Sequence record: PZ151149.1 | Length of the DNA stretch: 64,000 nt | Strand: one strand, 5' to 3' | Source of the DNA: a phage | In this document: positions 1 through 23,497 of the stretch, one piece after another | Layout of the letters: each line of letters opens with the position of its first letter | Position numbering within the stretch: position 1 is the first letter of the stretch | Notes under the pieces: model-generated | Database searches by the model: none | Told to the model about the DNA's origin: nothing | The model's input: only the letters and a program-made list of their open reading frames with translations | Program-made: the position numbers and the translations under genes

Positions 1-189
1 TTTCTTTTCAAGGTAGTCAATCACGCAATCTTCAACGCTATTAAATGGAAAACGTGACTCTTTCTGCCATCGTTCACATGACCGTACAAACTCGTGTGTA
101 TTCTTAGATGCCAGTGTCAGATCATGCACAGCGCACCCATTAAGCATAGCAACCAAAGCCGCAAGACCAATCAGTTTAATCATTTTCAT
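1..189 (-). CDS. putative lipoprotein, N-terminal part only (gene runs off window start)
   Basis: ATG at 189..187 overlaps stop of upstream gene (ATGA); N-terminus MKMIKLIGLAALVAMLNGC has signal peptide plus lipobox LNGC. Confidence 0.35.
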   Translation of the reverse strand, partial: MKMIKLIGLAALVAMLNGCAVHDLTLASKNTHEFVRSCERWQKESRFPFNSVEDCVIDYLEKK

Positions 190-1010
190 TTAGTCACCTC
201 ACCGAAAATTGTAAATTGTCTACGATTCTCATCGCCGAAAGATTCTACTACGTCGTTTACCTTGACGCAAGTCCCGCGCGGTAAAATTACTTCACATTCG
301 CAAGGGTTCCATGCAATTGACCCAACAACAAAACCTTTATGATCTTTTATGTCAATTACCCATGATACATTACAAGAATGTTGCATCTTTCCGGTCATTG
401 ATTCATATCGATTCTCACAATAAAGGCTAGTGCTGTTTGATAGCCATCCTCCAAAGATGATCGGTGTCATGCTGGTAGATACAAAGTTTTTAAAGGTAAA
501 CTCCTTATCTTCAATGATACGCTCTATTGTCTGAATGTCAAGATGTTGACCGCGATAAAGAGTACCGTTTAACTTTTCGGTTTTATCCATGACGCAATCC
601 ATCAAATCGACAATCTCTGATATCTCATCGGTCATGTCTTCTTCCCCTAAGAGAGCACCATTTACCCATTCGTATTGTTCAGACACATAATCACAGATTG
701 CATTATATTCTGCTGGGGTTATGTTGTTATGTTTGTAATGTTTGAATACATTATCTCCAAAGTCTTCGGAGTGTACTTCATACATCACATTAATGATTTT
801 CTTGACAAATCCATAATCTTGTGTCTCGCGCTCAAGGAAGCGGATAACCTTCACATAATCATCAAAGTTAATCTGATCGCTGATCATCTCAGTGATCATG
901 TAGCCATTAATCCCCTCAATGTCATATGTTTCGATGTAATTATCCATACGTTCCATCATTGATTCGCGTGATTCTTCTGAAAGACGAAAATCCTGTAATT
1001 GTTTGAACAT
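186..1010 (-). CDS. Alt-like ADP-ribosyltransferase paralog (274 aa)
   Basis: ORF with GGGAGG SD; R-S-ExE motifs (LYRG ... FVSTS ... ECEVILPRG) closely parallel those in the adjacent Alt protein. Confidence 0.6.
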   Translation of the reverse strand: MFKQLQDFRLSEESRESMMERMDNYIETYDIEGINGYMITEMISDQINFDDYVKVIRFLERETQDYGFVKKIINVMYEVHSEDFGDNVFKHYKHNNITPAEYNAICDYVSEQYEWVNGALLGEEDMTDEISEIVDLMDCVMDKTEKLNGTLYRGQHLDIQTIERIIEDKEFTFKNFVSTSMTPIIFGGWLSNSTSLYCENRYESMTGKMQHSCNVSWVIDIKDHKGFVVGSIAWNPCECEVILPRGTCVKVNDVVESFGDENRRQFTIFGEVTK

Positions 1011-1088: not shown

Positions 1089-3140
1089 TTACATTTTAAA
1101 TTTATCCGGCATTGCGTCTACAGATACCAGATCAGCGATAAGCTGACGTAGAGTTGCCTTATCTGCTTTCTTACGTTCGGTTTTAGCTTCGCTAATGAAG
1201 CTGGAGAAAGACAGGTCAGAAGCAGGTTTAACAACACCTTCACGGATGAATGCATCACCGTCCGCGATCATCTCGCCAGATTCTTGTAATGCTGCCAGTT
1301 CATTTTTGTTCATAATATGTGCCTCAATGTAATAAGTTTCTTGTGAATCCGTCGATGCCGTAGCACGAGTTACCGTATCAAAGGATAACACAACACCGCG
1401 AGGAAGTAAAATCTCGCATTCTTTGTAAGCAAATGCTTTGTTACCTACTGGCAATACAGGGATGTTTTCCGCGCCAGCAATGGAGAAAGCAACATTAGCG
1501 CCACCTTCACCGCGAGAGCCAGCCATAGAATCAACACCAGCAACGGCACTAGCCACGTTTGCATTCCAGCCGCCAAAAATGTTAGGTGCAAGGGAAGTGC
1601 TCACATAGTTTTTAAAGTAAAACGCTTTTTGCTTACGTGCAGTTTCCCACATTTGCGACCGGAAGTCCATACCACGATACAGAATAGTACCCGGATCAAG
1701 TTTAACGCCATAGTTGGAGAAGGCATTATCCAGTGCATCACACATCTTGACCAATTCTTCTGGATCTGCGATGCCTTCAAACTCTTCCAGCTTACGGTCG
1801 GTTAGGAAGTTGTTCATATTGATGTATGCTGCATCGGCATATTCGCTCAACACAAAACCTTCCGCGCCTGGCAGATCAAGATCAATATCTGCCATCATTT
1901 CACCCATGTTGCTAGCAATTGCTTCAAACATACCGGAAGCAACATTACGTAGGGCATCGGTTTTGATCTGGGTGATATGACTACGCAGCATTTCAGCTTT
2001 TACATCTGCTGGCATAGACTGGTCTACTCGATCCATTGCCAGGGCGGTGATCTTGTTTTCGAATACTTCCTCGCTCATGATTTCTTTTAAGCGTTTGATT
2101 GATGCTGCGATAACTTCCGCAGACAACGGATCATATTGATCCTGAACTTTTACCAGTTCGCTTACTGCGTATTTTGCATCGGCTTCGCTTTCAAAAATAG
2201 TACGCATGAAACCATAGCGAGTGATAATATCACTTGTCCAGTCATTCAGAGAACGGGCGGTTGAACGTTCTAAGGCTTGACGGTCAATCAGAGTATTAAA
2301 CTGTTTCTTAGGTTCTGCTTCGGTGATATCTTCTTCCGGTTTAAGATTAATTTTTTCTGGATGATTCACATAGTCGCTGTTATAGGTCGCTTGAGTTTTC
2401 AGCATTTCTTCTTTAGTCAAACGAGATTTAGCCGCTACGCGTTGTTCTGCTTCCGCGTTTCGTTCTTCTTCTGACACAAGACTAGCCGCATATGCTTCAT
2501 CTTTAGTCAGAGATTCGCCAGTAGCTTTAGATACCCAGCGATCACCTAAATCACTTTCTACTTTAGTGAACAAGGATTCATCAAGTTTAATCCCTTTAAT
2601 CTTATCAATCGCCATCCCGCGACGTTTGACAACAACTAAAGCGATCTTTTTGCTGGTCATTACTTCCTGCTGGAATACTTCAAACTTCGGTGTACGACGC
2701 ACCAAACGCTCTATAACGCGCTTAACCAGTTCGGTCTTACCTTTCATGCGGGATACGTTAAAACGGAACATAACAGCGTCTAATTGCGCTTTACGTGCTG
2801 TTTCCATAACCACATCAAAAGCACTTGCCATAACTGCAATCGGGTTATCGCCTAGACCATTTTTAAGCTGTACAATACGACCGCTTTTGTTCATTTCGCA
2901 CAGTACAACATGTGCGGTCTTGTCACCCATACGAATGATTTTAGGTGTTTTGTTGGTGAAGTTACAAAGACGGACAATCACATCTTTATCGCGTGTCTGT
3001 ACTGCAAAAAGCTGTTTAGGATTCTGCTTAGGCTTTAAGCACTGTACCGGGGCAATACTACCAAAGTTTTCTTCCTCTTCCGTCAACAGCCATTTCTCGA
3101 AAGATTCAATCATTAGATCGTCGATTTCTAAGTTAAACAT
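1089..3140 (-). CDS. alt: ADP-ribosyltransferase Alt (683 aa)
   Basis: Length matches T4 Alt (682 aa); ART signature YRG ... YVSTS ... ECEILLPRG; SD GAGGA before ATG. Confidence 0.8.
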   Translation of the reverse strand: MFNLEIDDLMIESFEKWLLTEEEENFGSIAPVQCLKPKQNPKQLFAVQTRDKDVIVRLCNFTNKTPKIIRMGDKTAHVVLCEMNKSGRIVQLKNGLGDNPIAVMASAFDVVMETARKAQLDAVMFRFNVSRMKGKTELVKRVIERLVRRTPKFEVFQQEVMTSKKIALVVVKRRGMAIDKIKGIKLDESLFTKVESDLGDRWVSKATGESLTKDEAYAASLVSEEERNAEAEQRVAAKSRLTKEEMLKTQATYNSDYVNHPEKINLKPEEDITEAEPKKQFNTLIDRQALERSTARSLNDWTSDIITRYGFMRTIFESEADAKYAVSELVKVQDQYDPLSAEVIAASIKRLKEIMSEEVFENKITALAMDRVDQSMPADVKAEMLRSHITQIKTDALRNVASGMFEAIASNMGEMMADIDLDLPGAEGFVLSEYADAAYINMNNFLTDRKLEEFEGIADPEELVKMCDALDNAFSNYGVKLDPGTILYRGMDFRSQMWETARKQKAFYFKNYVSTSLAPNIFGGWNANVASAVAGVDSMAGSRGEGGANVAFSIAGAENIPVLPVGNKAFAYKECEILLPRGVVLSFDTVTRATASTDSQETYYIEAHIMNKNELAALQESGEMIADGDAFIREGVVKPASDLSFSSFISEAKTERKKADKATLRQLIADLVSVDAMPDKFKM

Positions 3141-3186
3141 TTTATATCCTCTAGTTGATAACCTATAAACCTATATTTATGAAAAC

Positions 3187-3210
3187 GGGGCTTAACGCCC
3201 CCTTTTTATT
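3187..3210. terminator. hairpin GGGGC-TTAAC-GCCCC flanked by T-runs on both strands
   Basis: Palindromic GC stem with CTTTTTATT on plus and U-rich sequence on minus; sits between small-gene operon and alt. Confidence 0.4.
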
Positions 3211-3421
3211 ATAATGCACCATCGAGCAATTGCTCTAAGGTGTATCCTGAATAGTCTTTTTCAATCAGGATATATTTTCCTACTCGTTTAATACAACCGC
3301 GCATTTCAACGTATTCTGCGTAGTTGATGGTACGAGTTGTTCCATCTTCCAGTAATGCAGTACCGATTTCGTTAATGCGGTCATAAGTTACGTCGGTAAT
3401 GATGATTTCGATGTTAGCCAT
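3209..3421 (-). CDS. hypothetical small protein (70 aa)
   Basis: Internal ATG at 3421 preceded by AAGGAG SD and conserved promoter cassette; track ORF 3209..3514 starts upstream of the promoter. Confidence 0.5.
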   Translation of the reverse strand: MANIEIIITDVTYDRINEIGTALLEDGTTRTINYAEYVEMRGCIKRVGKYILIEKDYSGYTLEQLLDGAL

Positions 3422-3456
3422 TTGATACTCCTTAGTAGTTCGTTTCGGTATGGGTG

Positions 3457-3486
3457 TATTATGATATACACCCGATCTTATGTCAA
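3457..3486 (-). promoter_or_regulatory. sigma70-type early promoter cassette
   Basis: TTGACA (3486..3481), 17-18 nt spacer, CATAAT/ATAATA -10, then conserved UTR and AAGGAG SD. Confidence 0.6.
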
Positions 3487-3492
3487 CACTTT

Positions 3493-3771
3493 TTATAAAA
3501 TAATTTTTTGACATTTTTCTATGATGTTCGTGTAAGTCACATCAACCGCTAGCACCGTTGCTTCGAATCCACCGTTTAGCCAATGGCTATGATCTTTTTC
3601 GTCAAAGAAGCCGAGGCCAATACGAAGACCTTCCTTATATTCTGCGCGTACATTTAAATCATCGTCGATAAACAGATAAAACCATGAATTTTTACTAGGA
3701 TTGATGATACAACCTTTCAGATTAGGGAGAATATCACGACTAAGAATAAACTTATCACCTACTTTGAGCAT
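3493..3771 (-). CDS. small protein, HxHW/AVDV paralog family member A (93 aa)
   Basis: ATG at 3771 with GAGGAAA SD; C-terminal motif HSHWLNGGFEATVLAVDV shared with four neighbouring ORFs. Confidence 0.5.
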   Translation of the reverse strand: MLKVGDKFILSRDILPNLKGCIINPSKNSWFYLFIDDDLNVRAEYKEGLRIGLGFFDEKDHSHWLNGGFEATVLAVDVTYTNIIEKCQKIIL

Positions 3772-3785
3772 AATATTTTCCTCAC

Positions 3786-4094
3786 TTATAAAGTTTGACC
3801 GTTGTTTTTCGCGTAATGCTGAATGCGTGCTTGATCTGCTTCCGCTGGTGATAGATTCCATGCGATCACTACAACTTCTGACGCATCGTCATCCGTTTTT
3901 GATACCCAATGATTGTGATTCATACAATTGTTTGCTATCGCGTGAGCAAATGATCTCATTACCGGAGACGTATAATCATAGTAACGGATTTTCAGATTTT
4001 CATCAACGTACAAGTAGATCGTATACGGCTTATATTCAGTAACCAGTAACAGACAGTTACGCAATTCTGGGAAAATCTTTTTAGTTAATTTCAT
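3786..4094 (-). CDS. small protein, HxHW family member B (102 aa)
   Basis: ATG at 4094 with GAGGA SD directly after stop of upstream gene; motifs IYLYVDENLKIRYY and NHNHW. Confidence 0.5.
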   Translation of the reverse strand: MKLTKKIFPELRNCLLLVTEYKPYTIYLYVDENLKIRYYDYTSPVMRSFAHAIANNCMNHNHWVSKTDDDASEVVVIAWNLSPAEADQARIQHYAKNNGQTL

Positions 4095-4095
4095 T

Positions 4096-4314
4096 TTATA
4101 ATCCTCGGTCGCGGCTATAGTACACGGTACGCCATACAATTTCATGTTTCGTGTCGCTCCAGCACACGATCTCATTTACTCTTAAATCTTTGTTATCAAC
4201 AAAAGATGAACATTGTGACGCTTCTTTCATCATTTTATCTGCTGTTTTCTCATCAAATACAGCACAGATTTCTTTATACACTCGATAATCTTTGAATTGA
4301 CTCTGGATACCCAT
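4096..4314 (-). CDS. hypothetical small protein, FKDY/KMM paralog 1
   Basis: ORF in track; start uncertain (TTG 4335, ATG 4326 or ATG 4314); paralogous to 4274..4531. Confidence 0.4.
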   Translation of the reverse strand: MGIQSQFKDYRVYKEICAVFDEKTADKMMKEASQCSSFVDNKDLRVNEIVCWSDTKHEIVWRTVYYSRDRGL

Positions 4315-4531
4315 AATTAACACCATTCCAACCAATTGTTTTTGAGAAAACGTTTATCCACTGTTGAGTGTAACATGTTTCTTTCCATGATACAATACGA
4401 GTAGAATAATGGTTTTTGTTTCCAGAAAAGGACGGGCATTTTGATGCATCTTCCATCATCTTTTCGGCGAACTCTGGTTCGTATACTCGCAAGATCTGTT
4501 GATATGCTTTGTAGTCTTTAAATTTGCTCAT
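4274..4531 (-). CDS. hypothetical small protein, FKDY/KMM paralog 2 (85 aa)
   Basis: ATG at 4531; shares FKDYxxYxxI ... KMM(K/E)(E/D)AS(Q/K)C(S/P)SF with neighbour. Confidence 0.5.
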   Translation of the reverse strand: MSKFKDYKAYQQILRVYEPEFAEKMMEDASKCPSFSGNKNHYSTRIVSWKETCYTQQWINVFSKTIGWNGVNYGYPESIQRLSSV

Positions 4532-4796
4532 AATCGTTAACTACCTTATCAGCTTCTTTTATTGTTTTTACATCAACTGCGATAACTCGTAAAGGTTCGT
4601 CATGGTTCCACCAGTGGTCATGAATATCAGCTTGTGATTTATCACCAAAGGAATCACTAATATCATTTTTACATTTATAGCTAATATGGCCTTCATAGTC
4701 AACATAAAGGTAATTATCGAAAATCGGCGTTTTTAAGATCATACCGAAAAATCTTTCTTTGTGTGTCTTATCCAGTGTTGCAGTAATTCGCATCAT
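4518..4796 (-). CDS. small protein, HxHW family member C (92 aa)
   Basis: ATG at 4796 with AGAGGA SD; motifs NYLYVDYEG and HDHWWNHDEPLRVIAVDV. Confidence 0.55.
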   Translation of the reverse strand: MMRITATLDKTHKERFFGMILKTPIFDNYLYVDYEGHISYKCKNDISDSFGDKSQADIHDHWWNHDEPLRVIAVDVKTIKEADKVVNDYEQI

Positions 4797-4808
4797 AATA
4801 TATTCCTC

Positions 4809-4988
4809 TTAGAAAGGGATGGTCATTTCTTGAGCTTGTACATTCTCGTTAGGATTAAACTTCATCCAACCGATATTGTCTACCAGCATATGTACATTTT
4901 TATCATATCCTACGTGAGTAGTCAACACTAAATGTGCTTTACCTTCAACGATGATTTCCATGTACTTCTGAACTTCGATAGCTTTCAT
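4809..4988 (-). CDS. hypothetical small protein (59 aa)
   Basis: Below track cutoff; ATG at 4988 follows conserved promoter/UTR/GGAGAA SD cassette; hand translation MKAIEVQKYMEIIVEGK... Confidence 0.45.
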   Translation of the reverse strand: MKAIEVQKYMEIIVEGKAHLVLTTHVGYDKNVHMLVDNIGWMKFNPNENVQAQEMTIPF

Positions 4989-5020
4989 TTTGATTCTCCG
5001 TTTGTTGTCTTGATGGGAGT

Positions 5021-5049
5021 ATCTTACTACTCCCTTTAATCATTGTCAA
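5021..5049 (-). promoter_or_regulatory. sigma70-type early promoter cassette
   Basis: TTGACA (5049..5044), 17 nt spacer, TAAGAT -10 (5026..5021). Confidence 0.6.
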
Positions 5050-5052
5050 CGA

Positions 5053-5220
5053 TTATTTGTTAATTTCCGGTGCGTTGCTTGGATAGTAGCCTTCTTTAAC
5101 ACCAAGATATTTTGCAACCATTCCGGTGATCTTCTGTGCTACTACGATATCGAATTTCAGGTAGTCTTCACCGTGGTTTGCTACAATGTATGCTTCGCAT
5201 TCTGCTTTAGTCTGGAACAT
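5053..5220 (-). CDS. hypothetical small protein (55 aa)
   Basis: ATG at 5220 with AGGAGA SD downstream of promoter cassette; track ORF 5053..5307 extends upstream through the promoter. Confidence 0.45.
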   Translation of the reverse strand: MFQTKAECEAYIVANHGEDYLKFDIVVAQKITGMVAKYLGVKEGYYPSNAPEINK

Positions 5221-5254
5221 TTTTGATTCTCCTATATCTCGTTGGTATGTGTGT

Positions 5255-5283
5255 AGTATAGGGGATCGGTGATCCCCTGTCAA
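5255..5283 (-). promoter_or_regulatory. sigma70-type early promoter cassette
   Basis: TTGACA (5283..5278), 17 nt spacer, TATACT -10. Confidence 0.55.
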
Positions 5284-5290
5284 CAACTTT

Positions 5291-5806
5291 TTATTCTTCA
5301 TCTTCATTTTTATCTTTATATGCGTACTTCATAAATTTGTCTGCTACTTTGTCCGCGTTTTCAGGTTCTACGTCTGACGCTAGGACAACAGCTAGTTCGG
5401 TTTTGTCGTTTCCATCATACCAATGATTATGAGTGTCGTTTTCTTCGATATAAAACGAATCAGTTGGAGCTGTGCGACAATATACGTCTAAATTACCATC
5501 GATATAAAAGATCCAATCCGAATACAAAATGATTGTTTTAGCCAGATTTTTATTGTCTCTTACAAAAGGTTCCGCGACAAATAGCTTAGTTTGTTCCATA
5601 ATATTTTCCTCAAAATTATACAGCTTCGTAAACTTCCCAATGTCAACACCAGCACGCTTAACGAAAAGGTTTTCTTTGATGTTATTCATAAACGTCTGGA
5701 TGGATTTAATGCGGTTGGAAGGTTTCCAGTCTTCGTTAGCATTGCGACGATACATCATGACATTACCAGTTTGCTTATATTCAGCAACCATTTTAAGACC
5801 ACACAT
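5291..5806 (-). CDS. small protein, HxHW family member D with N-terminal extension (171 aa)
   Basis: ATG at 5806 with GAGGA SD; motifs DWIFYIDGNLDVY and HNHWYDGNDKTELAVVLASDV. Confidence 0.55.
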   Translation of the reverse strand: MCGLKMVAEYKQTGNVMMYRRNANEDWKPSNRIKSIQTFMNNIKENLFVKRAGVDIGKFTKLYNFEENIMEQTKLFVAEPFVRDNKNLAKTIILYSDWIFYIDGNLDVYCRTAPTDSFYIEENDTHNHWYDGNDKTELAVVLASDVEPENADKVADKFMKYAYKDKNEDEE

Positions 5807-5855
5807 AATATTATCCTCAATTTGTGGGAGAGTATTACCCCTCCCAATGATTGTT

Positions 5856-5884
5856 ATATTACATCACACAAAATGGCGTGTCAA
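5856..5884 (-). promoter_or_regulatory. possible early promoter
   Basis: TTGACA (5884..5879) with TAATAT-like -10 about 17 nt downstream; overlaps 3' end of upstream gene. Confidence 0.35.
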
Positions 5885-6196
5885 TGCTTCTTTTGCGGTT
5901 CCGCTAAGACTTTCGATCTCTCCTGGCATAACATCAACCGCCAGAACTTCTACAACATCCTCTGTTCCTAACCAGTGAGTATGACCTTTGTAGAACTTGA
6001 TGGCCATATTTCCTTCTTCGTCCCATTTAACGCCCCATTTAACGTTATCACTAGCCCACCACACATCACCGTCGATAAAGTTGATGTAAAGCACACTACG
6101 CCACATTGAATTAGTTACTTTCAATACTGCGCCTTTCATCTCTTCCACGGTGTGGTCTTCCATTTTGAAGACCTCGCCTACCTGAACTTTTGCCAT
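5864..6196 (-). CDS. small protein, HxHW family member E (110 aa)
   Basis: ATG at 6196 with GGAG SD right after stop of upstream gene; motifs LYINFIDGDV and HTHWLGTEDVVEVLAVDV. Confidence 0.55.
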   Translation of the reverse strand: MAKVQVGEVFKMEDHTVEEMKGAVLKVTNSMWRSVLYINFIDGDVWWASDNVKWGVKWDEEGNMAIKFYKGHTHWLGTEDVVEVLAVDVMPGEIESLSGTAKEALTRHFV

Positions 6197-6197
6197 G

Positions 6198-6464
6198 TTA
6201 CATGCTCCGAATATGTTTAGCTGCATCTTCCAGTTCGTCGATAGTGACACTGTGTGCCAGTAAGTGTACTGGTTGTGGTTCTTCGCCTTCCATAGTATTG
6301 ATCAGATGACCATTTCCTGGGTGGAATGTATCGTTGCCGTTCCAAATAGCATACACATCATCTTCTGTTACATAGATAATAAGTCCAATCGGTGATTCTG
6401 GTAATTGAAAAATTTTACCCACTGCATCTTTGCGATTGTCTACGATATCTTTTACTGTCTTCAT
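6198..6464 (-). CDS. hypothetical protein (88 aa)
   Basis: ATG at 6464 with GAGAGG SD; in operon downstream of promoter at 6698..6727. Confidence 0.5.
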   Translation of the reverse strand: MKTVKDIVDNRKDAVGKIFQLPESPIGLIIYVTEDDVYAIWNGNDTFHPGNGHLINTMEGEEPQPVHLLAHSVTIDELEDAAKHIRSM

Positions 6465-6483
6465 TTAGTTACCTCTCGTTAAA

Positions 6484-6663
6484 TTACATCACAATCACGC
6501 CAGCCGTAGAAAGTTGATGTTTCAACTGAGCATTTTCTGCTACCGTCAAATCAATGATTTCCTGTGACGCTGCAATCATATAGCCATTGGTGATATTGTT
6601 TTGCATCAGTTCAATGGTTTCTTCGTTGTAGCGGATTTTAGCGATGATTTCGTTGAAGTTCAT
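6484..6663 (-). CDS. hypothetical small protein (59 aa)
   Basis: Below track cutoff; ATG at 6663 follows promoter cassette and AGGAGA SD; hand translation MNFNEIIAKIRYNEETIELMQ... Confidence 0.45.
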   Translation of the reverse strand: MNFNEIIAKIRYNEETIELMQNNITNGYMIAASQEIIDLTVAENAQLKHQLSTAGVIVM

Positions 6664-6697
6664 GTTTGATTCTCCTAGTTCGTTTCGGTATGTGTGT

Positions 6698-6727
6698 ATT
6701 ATAGGGGAGTTTAACCTCCCCTGTCAA
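6698..6727 (-). promoter_or_regulatory. sigma70-type early promoter cassette
   Basis: TTGACA (6727..6722), 18 nt spacer, TATAAT (6703..6698). Confidence 0.6.
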
Positions 6728-6740
6728 CAACTTTTTTGAA

Positions 6741-7217
6741 TTATTTTTCTTGATGCTCGCGCTCGTACTTTTCGAAATAAAATTCTACTGGCTGATCGTG
6801 GATTGAAAGCAAGCCAAAGCGTTTAGCCGCACGTAATCCCATGTTACGTTGAATGTACTTCTGGAAGTTCTCGCGTATACACTTACGCCAGTATTCTAAG
6901 CCCATACAGCTTTTATAAAGATTGCATTGCACACACGCCGGATTCATGTTATCAAGTATATCATGTTCCGGTTTATGCATTCCTACAACCTTATACTTCC
7001 ACGATCCATCATCATTACGGGCAATTCGTCCATTTTCATCATAGACTACCTTTGAGCGTCGCAATACTGGTTTGATGTGGTCTGCGTGCCAGCGATCCCC
7101 TAGTTCCTCGCCACAATAGGCACAACGTCCACCATATTTCATTTTCAGGATCTGGCGTTGCTCTTTCTTTGACAATTTTTTAGGTTTAGGGGCTTTCGCC
7201 CCTTCATTATCACACAT
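6741..7217 (-). CDS. HNH endonuclease (158 aa)
   Basis: CAYCGEEL ... HADHIKP ... N ... CVQCN: His-Me finger with two CxxC pairs; overlaps ligase stop. Confidence 0.6.
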   Translation of the reverse strand: MCDNEGAKAPKPKKLSKKEQRQILKMKYGGRCAYCGEELGDRWHADHIKPVLRRSKVVYDENGRIARNDDGSWKYKVVGMHKPEHDILDNMNPACVQCNLYKSCMGLEYWRKCIRENFQKYIQRNMGLRAAKRFGLLSIHDQPVEFYFEKYEREHQEK

Positions 7218-8706
7218 CGAATACCTCTTTTACTGTATTTGCAGTGGTCTTGTCGTAGCGAATACGTTTGATGATCGGGAGAAATAAAGAGAACTCCGGT
7301 TCATCTTCTTTACGTGATTTGCTTCGAATGTACCCGTTGCATGTCATCTCAATGACTTTTCCAATCAGGTTATGACGGTCAGCCCATAACATTTCTCGGT
7401 CGAGTTCATTTCGACGATCGAACGGAATTACACGTTCAATACCATCATCACCTTTTTCGGTTGTGGTGTCGGTTAATCCCGATCCGGTGTTAGTCATCAT
7501 TCGTCCGCACGCACTACGGACAGTAAAACCGCCTACCTTATTAGGATCTTTACTATGCGGATATACATCAACAATTTCAGCGTCGAAGTCAATCACTTCT
7601 TTAAATTTAACCTGGTCTTTACTGCGACGATCTTCAAATACACCATGTAAATTTTTAAGGATAATACCTTCTAAGCCCATGTTTACATAGCGATGATATA
7701 CTTCGCGAGCTTCATCGATATTGTTAACTACAGTATTTTCGATTATCTGAACACGAGGATCGTTAAGTTCTTCAACAATCTGTTTTAGTTCTTCGAATCG
7801 ATCTTTATATTGCTTCGTGGCTTTCTCGTTTCCGTAATACACATCACGGTCGATAACATCCCAGACAGTATAAACAATACATTGGGCTTCTTCTTTTGGA
7901 ATAGTTCCTTTAAGTGATTTGTTGAGGATACCATTTCCGGTCTGACGGTCTGCAACAACGGATTCTTTTACTGCTTCCGCTACTGGCGTTAATGGCATTT
8001 CCTCTTCTTCAAATATCCATGACAGAGTACCATCATAAACGCTCTCAACGAAGTTCTGCGCTGGTGTTTGCGAAAGGGTAGGCATATATACCAATTCGCC
8101 ATCTAGAACAATTCCACGGCCTCGTAGACGCTCTAAAACCGCAAACAAATCATCAAGTCCCTGATAGGTATTACCTGAACGGGTATAGATTGCTAATGTT
8201 TCCCCGTCAATATCAGCCATACCACGAGCACCATCGCTTTTAAGTTGTGCATACGCCGGATACTTGATATTAGCAATAGTCTTATCAGAACATGACGATG
8301 CAAGGTGACACGGTTGCTGGGGGATCAGTTTCTTCCACACCTTGTTTGCAGTGGTAGCGGAACAACCACACTCCAGATCACGATTCAGGACCATCATTGC
8401 AACTTTAGCATCATCCTCTGACAAGCAAGTCAGAGTATCGGTAACTAGCTGTAATGCTGCATTACCAGTTATTTGACGCGTGGCAAGTTTATTTTTAAAG
8501 ACCTGTAATGCGCCAGATAAAGACAATACAGACGAATAGCGCGATGGTTTATCGTATTTCTTTACGCCGAACGTAACCTGTTTGCAATATGCCAGATAAA
8601 AGCATTCTTTAAGCGTTTCATTGCTTGCAGATTCTTTCAGGATCTTTTCTTTCAGCGATGTTTTGTCGGTCGCTGCAAGCTGGTTAATGATATTAAGAAT
8701 TGACAT
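7210..8706 (-). CDS. 30: ATP-dependent DNA ligase (T4 gene 30 type)
   Basis: About 498 aa; adenylation motif QLKSDGARG (KxDG); ATG at 8706 with GAGGTGA SD (track start 8712 is GTG). Confidence 0.85.
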   Translation of the reverse strand: MSILNIINQLAATDKTSLKEKILKESASNETLKECFYLAYCKQVTFGVKKYDKPSRYSSVLSLSGALQVFKNKLATRQITGNAALQLVTDTLTCLSEDDAKVAMMVLNRDLECGCSATTANKVWKKLIPQQPCHLASSCSDKTIANIKYPAYAQLKSDGARGMADIDGETLAIYTRSGNTYQGLDDLFAVLERLRGRGIVLDGELVYMPTLSQTPAQNFVESVYDGTLSWIFEEEEMPLTPVAEAVKESVVADRQTGNGILNKSLKGTIPKEEAQCIVYTVWDVIDRDVYYGNEKATKQYKDRFEELKQIVEELNDPRVQIIENTVVNNIDEAREVYHRYVNMGLEGIILKNLHGVFEDRRSKDQVKFKEVIDFDAEIVDVYPHSKDPNKVGGFTVRSACGRMMTNTGSGLTDTTTEKGDDGIERVIPFDRRNELDREMLWADRHNLIGKVIEMTCNGYIRSKSRKEDEPEFSLFLPIIKRIRYDKTTANTVKEVFDV

Positions 8707-9172
8707 TTTCACCTCGTTTTGTTAAACGTTCACGAATATCATTGAGGATACTACAAAATTCCGATTCAGTCAATATAGTCTTTAACGGATCAGTTCCACC
8801 TATGCTATGACGTAATTTCTTATTTCCTGTAGCGAGTAATGCTTTACAAAATTCTGGGTTATTCCGTGCCATCGTAACAAATGCCAGATGTACCAGTCTG
8901 TAATAATGCTCACTCATTCGATGAATCTGGCGACCCTGAAAATATAACATGTGATTCTCAATCTTTTCAGTTCTTCCGGTTCTTTTTGCTTTGCCACCGT
9001 GCATCAAAAAGATTTCTCTTTGTCTCTGAGGGTTCTTAAATCTTAGCCCCTGTAAAAATCCTTCTGTGCTGTTAATATCACAACCAAATAGACGGAATGG
9101 TCTTTTATTGAAATTGCTCAATTCACCCGATGGATAAGGTCCACCCGCATAGATATCAATTTCAGAAGTCAT
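8693..9172 (-). CDS. NADAR (YbiA/DUF1768)-like protein, putative ADP-ribose N-glycosidase (159 aa)
   Basis: GELSNFNKRPFRLFG ... STEGFLQGLRF ... ALLATG resembles recalled YbiA motifs GDFSNF ... SEHYFQAQKF ... ALLATA. Confidence 0.55.
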   Translation of the reverse strand: MTSEIDIYAGGPYPSGELSNFNKRPFRLFGCDINSTEGFLQGLRFKNPQRQREIFLMHGGKAKRTGRTEKIENHMLYFQGRQIHRMSEHYYRLVHLAFVTMARNNPEFCKALLATGNKKLRHSIGGTDPLKTILTESEFCSILNDIRERLTKRGENVNS

Positions 9173-23442: not shown

Positions 23443-23469
23443 TTTATCCTCCGTTGCTTAGATGAGTGT

Positions 23470-23497
23470 ATTATACATTACCACATCATCATGTCAA
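23470..23497 (-). promoter_or_regulatory. probable early promoter
   Basis: TTGACA (23497..23492), 16 nt spacer, TATAAT; followed by GGAGGA SD and ATG at 23442. Confidence 0.45.

Follow-up and report, generated by a model that had tools for sequence, protein, structure and literature searches.

What are the small proteins that a T4-type phage encodes between its alt and DNA ligase genes: do they form one family, how did the run of genes that encodes them come about, and what may they do for the phage? The question is raised by five small open reading frames (ORFs) in sequence record PZ151149.1, a 64,000-nucleotide stretch of phage DNA that we refer to as the window. A preliminary description of the window, made from its letters without database searches, had proposed that these ORFs encode a family of small proteins with a YxYID-like block, an HxHW motif and an AVDV-like block. 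All five are present on the minus strand at the positions given there, that is, A (3493..3771, 92 aa), B (3786..4094, 102 aa), C (4518..4796, 92 aa), D (within an ORF at 5291..5806) and E (5864..6196, 110 aa); their orthologues in phage RB49 are RB49p199, RB49p200, RB49p203, RB49p206 and RB49p208, respectively. The annotation of close relatives bears out their location between alt and ligase. A Megablast search with positions 3000..7300 of the window matched 59 phage records, all of them RB49-like T4-type Krischvirus coliphages with 90–97% identity; by this comparison, the source of the window is a Krischvirus, and its ligase-to-alt interval is the hyperplastic region HPR3 of RB49 and phi1.

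The homology of A–E, as judged by sequence comparison, is real and far above chance. Each of the five matches its own orthologue family in the PHROGs database with E-values of 1e-50 to 1e-66 (phrog_9345, phrog_17255, phrog_15972, phrog_15965 and phrog_16486, which contain the same proteins as the window members and are all annotated 'unknown function'), and one of these families, phrog_9345, is matched by all five (E from 2.4e-50 to 6e-3). In an all-against-all phmmer comparison, A–E find one another at E-values of 6e-7 to 3e-2, and neighboring ORFs score at least 0.09. A hidden Markov model (HMM) of the family, when run against the 800 six-frame ORFs of the window, retrieves exactly A–E (E 1e-27 to 2e-30), with the next-best ORF at an E-value of 2.1. 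The motifs tell the same story: H.HW occurs in five of the 800 ORFs, exactly A–E, with 0.68 occurrences expected from composition, so the possibility that the shared motifs lack significance can be set aside; and the three motifs in the right order (a strand rich in aromatic residues with D at its end, HxHW and hhAxDV, where h is hydrophobic) are found only in A–E. The RB49 orthologues of A–E align with the family profile at hhalign probabilities of 99.4–99.7%. The paralogues share 15–33% identity. PHROGs lists the members as separate families; the unity of the superfamily, two further branches (F and G, vide infra), the fusions and the structure of the array are not recorded there.

The count of five is one short, because the next-best ORF in the HMM scan, F (6198..6464, minus strand, 88 aa), had been overlooked; it lies directly upstream of E, with the start of E 1 nt past its stop. 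F is divergent: GNGHLI replaces HxHW and LLAHSV replaces LAVDV, so it retains motifs 1 and 3 and, of motif 2, only the second His. As a single sequence its match to the family is marginal (hhalign 34%), but a profile of its own family aligns collinearly with the family profile over 71 columns with a probability of 93.5% (E 2.3e-7), and its homologues have YIDEND and LLAVDV or LLATDV at the corresponding positions. On these alignments, F is the sixth member of the family in the window. A seventh branch, G (RB49p197), is found in relatives, so that the sequences define an orphan superfamily of at least seven subfamilies. No hidden member was detected among the 35 remaining ORFs between ligase and alt, which were taken from the window, RB49 and the metagenomic relative L006 and gave hhalign probabilities of 1.5% or less.

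Two details of the original proposal needed revision. The 171-aa ORF at 5291..5806 exists, but only its downstream part is D: the phrog_15965 match spans residues 70–166, and D proper (5291..5599, minus strand, 102 aa) has its own Shine-Dalgarno sequence (GAGGAA), an ATG at 5599 and an acidic C-terminal tail (pI 4.4). The remainder (5600..5806, minus strand) is the orthologue of RB49p207 (phrog_16334), a 63-aa gene upstream of D that does not belong to the family; compared with RB49, FL20, JK32 and G2494, it lacks 1 nt at 5644/5645 and with it the stop codon, which fuses it in frame to D. A genuine mutation could account for this deletion, and so could an error in sequencing. B had been called the most divergent member, which is true only of AWNL, its C-terminal motif; profile comparisons instead place it at the hub, because the phrog_9345 family that A–E all match is its own.

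We then asked whether the array is, as had been proposed, a locally amplified and rapidly diverging family. Neither part of this description is borne out. In nine reference Krischviruses (RB49, FL20, JSE, Makalu003, Skers, UPWr_E1, JK32, ECD7 and G2494) the gene order E-D-C-B-A-G is conserved; the copies are 15–33% identical; and a sister lineage known from metagenomes, whose ligase is 72% identical, already has two members in its own ligase-to-alt interval (37–46% identical to D). Orthologues are close, with a mean dN of 0.02–0.11 in the Krischvirus genomes examined, and tblastn finds B at 90% identity or more in all except JSE. The mean pairwise ratio of nonsynonymous to synonymous substitution rates (dN/dS), calculated for six orthologue groups with nine to ten Krischvirus genomes per group, is lowest for A (0.13), followed by C and D (0.16 each), E (0.20), G (0.21) and B (0.26); all six groups are thus protein-coding and evolve under purifying selection. 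Divergence within the family is faster than that of ligase, as is usual for accessory genes. By these comparisons, the array is old, stable and selected, and its copies are ancient paralogues and not the products of a recent accordion-like expansion. The amplified tifA locus of T4 is similar in that it is a multicopy set of accessory early genes in a T4-type phage; however, the segmental amplification that Srikant et al. are said to have described in 2022 reportedly yields recent, near-identical tandem copies under acute selection, in contrast to the divergent copies of this family, which are fixed in order across a genus.

The proposal that the region is an accessory island fares better, since members vary in their presence among relatives. 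The window has no G. The PeSL element that follows A (3458..3490, minus strand; PeSLs are early promoters with a stem-loop that are described below) is chimeric: its 5' half is that of PeSL199/198 of Makalu003 and its 3' half is that of PeSL188/187, and in Makalu003 these parents are located at 912..1000 and 5010..5110, ~4.2 kb apart. We infer that recombination between two PeSLs deleted ~4.2 kb and, with it, approximately eleven genes of the relatives, including G and a C5 cytosine methyltransferase; this would be a natural case of a type of event proposed in a study of HPR3 in RB49 and phi1 (Arbiol et al., 2010; PMC2839356). In JSE (5390..5684, 6654..7327 and 7653..8044), D is disrupted at its N-terminus, G is split into two ORFs and the slot of A holds a second B-like copy, which shows, at the level of sequence, ongoing loss and replacement inside the array. 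F is present in nine of ~57 Krischvirus records. From the deletion of G in the window, the lesions in JSE and the patchy distribution of F, single members are dispensable. D occurs as two deep allele classes (THNHW...SDV and TSNHW...SGV) separated by a dS of ~0.68, several times that of neighboring members, and metagenomes contain mixed forms; this pattern suggests replacement of alleles by recombination with a more distant relative.

How far does the superfamily extend beyond cultured Krischvirus? When 1.84 billion representative proteins were searched exhaustively with HMMER, only 19 matches came up at E ≤ 1e-3, all of them relatives, and word-indexed searching of 5.8 billion proteins yielded orthologues only, which lie on contigs of ~165–175 kb or on short metagenomic ones. 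With B and a distant member of the D type as queries, tblastn detected nothing outside Krischvirus among 50,697 phage genomes, and family alignments run against IMG/VR and GTDB yielded only prophage copies of the F type. These copies, 66–74% identical to F, occur as the final gene, at the edge, of ~35–43 kb prophages of Salmonella enterica, both in Salmonella chromosomes and in IMG/VR prophage contigs; besides Rha, these prophages encode a small terminase and a large terminase of the gpA type, and the edge with the F-type gene adjoins chromosomal PHP and 2-hydroxyacid dehydrogenase genes. Thus, one branch of the superfamily is common to virulent T4-type phages and temperate phages. The metagenomes also contain two fusions. 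In one, P0054, two A-like domains are fused in tandem (on a 2.1-kb contig with five domains in a row). In the other, on contig L004 (318..1100), a 260-aa ORF consists of two phrog_8471-type repeats fused to a B-type domain. The order of domains in the L004 fusion is that of the genes in the window, where two phrog_8471 genes that are not members of the family precede B: g4274 (4274..4531, minus strand), which belongs to the operon of C and has a 14-nt overlap with the end of C, and g4096 (4096..4314, minus strand), which has a 41-nt overlap with g4274 and a stop 1 nt before the start of B. The products of g4274 and g4096 are paralogues (phmmer E 5e-16) that are encoded in different frames where the genes overlap.

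When in infection would the members be made? The preliminary description had noted that the genes are interleaved with other tiny genes and promoter cassettes; this is correct, and the cassettes are published PeSL elements. In the window they have the arrangement of a PeSL-ORFan cassette: a consensus sigma-70 promoter is combined with an intergenic G/C stem-loop, and a Shine-Dalgarno sequence and small ORF come next. The PeSL early promoter at 6694..6727 (minus strand; TTGACA, a GGGGAG..CTCCCC stem-loop and TATAAT) would drive g6484, F and E. A weaker promoter-like site at 5826..5884 (minus strand; TTGACA, 17 nt and TAATAT, then a GGGAG..CTCCC stem-loop) overlaps the end of E and stands ahead of the RB49p207 orthologue and D. 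A PeSL-type early promoter at 5021..5049 (minus strand) would drive an operon of g4809, C, g4274, g4096, B and A, in which all junctions are 14 nt or less or overlapping. Between these two, the PeSL early promoter at 5251..5283 (minus strand), which is equivalent to PeSL206/205 of RB49 and phi1, would drive a 55-aa gene (5053..5220); the chimeric PeSL at 3458..3490 would drive a 70-aa gene (3209..3421), and a hairpin resembling an intrinsic terminator (GGGGCGTTAAGCCCC followed by a T run; 3187..3201, minus strand) closes the region ahead of alt. According to PMC2839356, PeSL206/205 of RB49 is a strong promoter that gives ~13,000 Miller units with a lacZ reporter.

The pattern TTGACA-N15-19-TAWAMTACWC has three matches in the window, with none expected in shuffled sequences, and two of the matches are inside the region; the third exact match lies beyond it, at 23466..23497 (minus strand). 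The T4-type late promoter consensus (TATAAATA) is not found between 3.1 and 7.2 kb. From the sigma-70 PeSL promoters and the lack of a nearby late-promoter consensus, we infer that the members are produced during the first minutes after infection; early expression is well supported in this sense, by sequence and by analogy with RB49. Every member has a Shine-Dalgarno sequence, none is the first gene behind a promoter, and the junctions inside the operons are 1–14 nt or overlapping, which suggests translational coupling. Each PeSL is instead followed first by a 'leader' gene of 55–70 aa (g6484, the RB49p207 orthologue, g5053, g4809 and g3209); a comparison of these leaders found no homology to one another.

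What kind of proteins are they? The members in the window have 88–110 aa and isoelectric points of 4.4–6.9, with no signal peptide and no hydrophobic segment, so they are cytoplasmic as far as sequence features can tell. Structure prediction, one of the checks that the preliminary description had suggested, gave confident AlphaFold2 models from shallow alignments for A (pLDDT 81.7, pTM 0.75) and D (pLDDT 87.8, pTM 0.80). In these models each protein is predicted to be one compact, β-rich domain of five or six antiparallel strands, in the order N-terminal strand, three or four antiparallel strands, a helix with HxHW, the (V/L)(V/I)AxDV strand and a C-terminal helix with a loosely conserved EADK. 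The YLYID block would form the third strand, and a loop and short helix would bear HxHW; two of the three motifs noticed originally are thus predicted to be core strands. Conservation of polar residues is limited to four positions, namely the two His, the Asp that follows strand 3 and the Asp of xDV. The second His alone is invariant across all subfamilies: F and the type-2 alleles of D have lost the first His, and B, P0048 and several D alleles have lost the xDV Asp; in F, Leu takes the place of the Trp.

The preliminary description could not assign the family to anything known, and our searches agree. Profile searches found no match to a well-characterized domain of known function: scans of every window member and 23 family sequences against Pfam, NCBIfam and PADLOC gave scattered sub-threshold matches, each in a single member; sequence searches of the PDB with three profiles gave nothing below an E-value of 0.08; and a Foldseek search of BFVD returned family members only. 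A search of the accessible literature found no paper on these proteins. The 2H and HNH-motif ideas were rejected on the basis of the motifs. DUF2829 proteins (the Tad2 anti-Thoeris sponge and AcrIIA7) and the Tas1 immunity protein PA14_01140 were named among the closest systems; DUF2829, like every other sponge family, is absent from the Pfam scans of the members.

We tentatively propose, with a probability of about 0.4 for the model as a whole, that the members are early accessory binding proteins. They would be made early in infection from sigma-70 PeSL promoters and would act stoichiometrically and without enzymatic activity, probably as homo- or heterodimers, with each paralogue binding a different host or competitor factor through a common scaffold and a patch centered on the His and Trp of HxHW; they would thus be accessory host-takeover or counter-defence proteins, and B would cooperate with the products of the two phrog_8471 genes that directly precede its own. 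Binding is favored over catalysis because the candidate catalytic or ligand residues vary while the genes stay under selection; the dimers are suggested by the tandem fusion in P0054, and the partnership of B with the phrog_8471 proteins by the fusion in L004 and the conserved adjacency of the genes. The F-type copies at the prophage edges in Salmonella are a further hint in favor of the model. The genes also have features expected of anti-defence genes, that is, they are accessory (variable in presence) and are expected to be expressed early from host-type promoters, as judged from sequence and the RB49 reporter. The functional reading in the preliminary description, host takeover or anti-defence, is therefore plausible; it draws on context, and the target could be host defence, the host machinery or competing phages. 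In a more ambitious form of the proposal, the proteins would be a new fold class of early inhibitors whose six or seven paralogues act as dimers against different immune or housekeeping targets, B together with phrog_8471 proteins, and one branch of which is shared with temperate Salmonella prophages; we regard this form as somewhat unlikely but, if it is correct, the ligase-to-alt array would be a compact, multitarget counter-defence battery.

Several other explanations have to be weighed. The predicted fold runs from four or five strands through a short helix and a last strand to a C-terminal helix, an order that resembles small β-barrels (SH3/KOW/Sm-like); low-scoring domains of this kind are frequent in the structure comparison with D; A and E start with a KOW-like sequence ((K/Q)VG(D/E)xF...(L/M)KGx(I/V)), and a public annotation of the A orthologue P0022 reads 'KOW2-KOW3 domains of Spt5'. 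The members could accordingly be barrel regulators that bind nucleic acid or, by analogy with the contacts of KOW domains to RNA polymerase or the ribosome, the transcription or translation machinery, and so modulate early host or phage expression. We consider this unlikely: no Pfam KOW match is found in 23 members at E ≤ 5, the family profile reaches hhalign probabilities of only 0.5% or less against Escherichia coli NusG, its KOW domain, L24, L14, S17 and an N-terminal fragment of L2, and the acidic-to-neutral proteins are unfavorable for binding nucleic acid. Acidity, together with small size, early synthesis, probable oligomerization and the conserved His, His and Asp beside a Trp, would suit a sponge of the Tad1/Tad2/Acb2 type that uses a His-x-His-Trp and Asp cluster in an oligomer to sequester an immune signaling nucleotide or a metal ion; the chances of this are nonetheless slim, given that the scans found no sponge family, that the first His and the Asp are lost variously in D type-2 alleles, B, F and P0048, and that six or seven paralogues would be unusual for a single class of ligand. 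The same variable residues bear on the suggestion of a small metal-dependent or His/Asp enzyme, e.g., a phosphoesterase with an active site of HxH and two Asp. The order YxYID ... HxHW ... xDV does resemble that of motifs I and II of the metallo-β-lactamases, and A has a weak NCBIfam match to a HAD-type plant acid phosphatase (E 0.008; 15.5 bits, with a cut-off of 264). However, the HxHxDH motif is incomplete, a domain of ~90 aa is too small for a HAD fold or for a metallo-β-lactamase (~200 aa or more), the comparison with model D gave no metallo-β-lactamase match, just the first Asp of the HAD DxD motif is kept (A DDD, B DEN, C DYE and D DGN), and the candidate ligands are lost in natural alleles under purifying selection; an enzyme is very improbable.

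Two further explanations concern the mobility of the region. The region is full of mobile PeSL cassettes and adjoins a gene for an HNH homing-type endonuclease, the family is lineage-restricted, and the F-type genes occupy a prophage edge, a classic site for superinfection-exclusion and moron genes; the members might therefore serve competition between phages or mobile elements, either by excluding T-even relatives or satellites or by protecting against their nucleases. They have no similarity to known exclusion proteins, and sequence does not separate this alternative from the one that we prefer; we give it long odds. The members might also be functionless or decaying cargo of the PeSL cassettes, with motifs shared merely by common descent. 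Some phages do have members lost, frameshifted or fused, and PMC2839356 reports that PeSL mini-circles move ORFans in HPR3; but the dN/dS values of 0.13–0.26 in six of six orthologue groups, the gene order conserved across the genus, the intact Shine-Dalgarno sequences and the persistence of members in the sister lineage make this scarcely credible, and the selection analysis largely refutes it.

The proposal of early accessory binding proteins faces points against it as well: the idea of binding has been reached mostly by excluding alternatives; many counter-defence loci turn over much faster than this array, which is stable in evolution; the fusions are each known from a single metagenomic contig; and the early timing is extrapolated from promoter sequence and from experiments on RB49 and phi1.

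The borders and regulatory cassettes of the array agree with published work. Its upstream border is the gene for DNA ligase, gp30 (7210..8712, minus strand, by the annotation of close relatives), and its downstream border is alt, which encodes an RNA polymerase ADP-ribosyltransferase (1089..3140, minus strand, by the annotation of near-identical relatives). The region and its cassettes are those of HPR3 in RB49 and phi1 (Arbiol et al., 2010; PMC2839356), and the PeSL206/205, PeSL211/210 and ORFans 192 and 210 of that study interleave with or flank the family genes; in the accessible text of the study, the ORFs of HPR3 are handled as unrelated ORFans, the word 'paralog' does not appear and no protein-level analysis is given. 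The HNH endonuclease gene (6741..7217, minus strand) has an 8-nt overlap with the ligase gene. RB49p192 ('ORFan192', RB49 7149..7625) encodes 158 aa, the same size as the HNH protein of the window; ORFan192 of RB49 is mini-circle cargo in PMC2839356. Directly 3' of alt, the window has a 274-aa ORF (186..1010, minus strand), and its 275-aa counterpart in L006 has an ADPrib_exo_Tox domain.

Krischviruses are widely isolated coliphages that are candidates for therapy, and their cytosines are unmodified; they must, therefore, handle host defences without hypermodification of their DNA. That T4-type hyperplastic regions contain ORFan families, and that HPR3 is full of them, was already known, and the genes studied here are annotated 'hypothetical protein' in dozens of genomes; the unity of a superfamily with at least seven branches, its conserved array, the fusions and the prophage branch appear not to have been described before. 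The locus provides a clean natural example of gene loss via recombination between PeSLs, and the two natural fusions lead to concrete hypotheses about dimerization and a partner protein. Because the array is conserved, probably expressed early and dispensable gene by gene, and because the fold of its six or seven paralogues is predicted with confidence and has no match among solved structures, it offers a compact and tractable set of genes for anti-defence or host-takeover screens.

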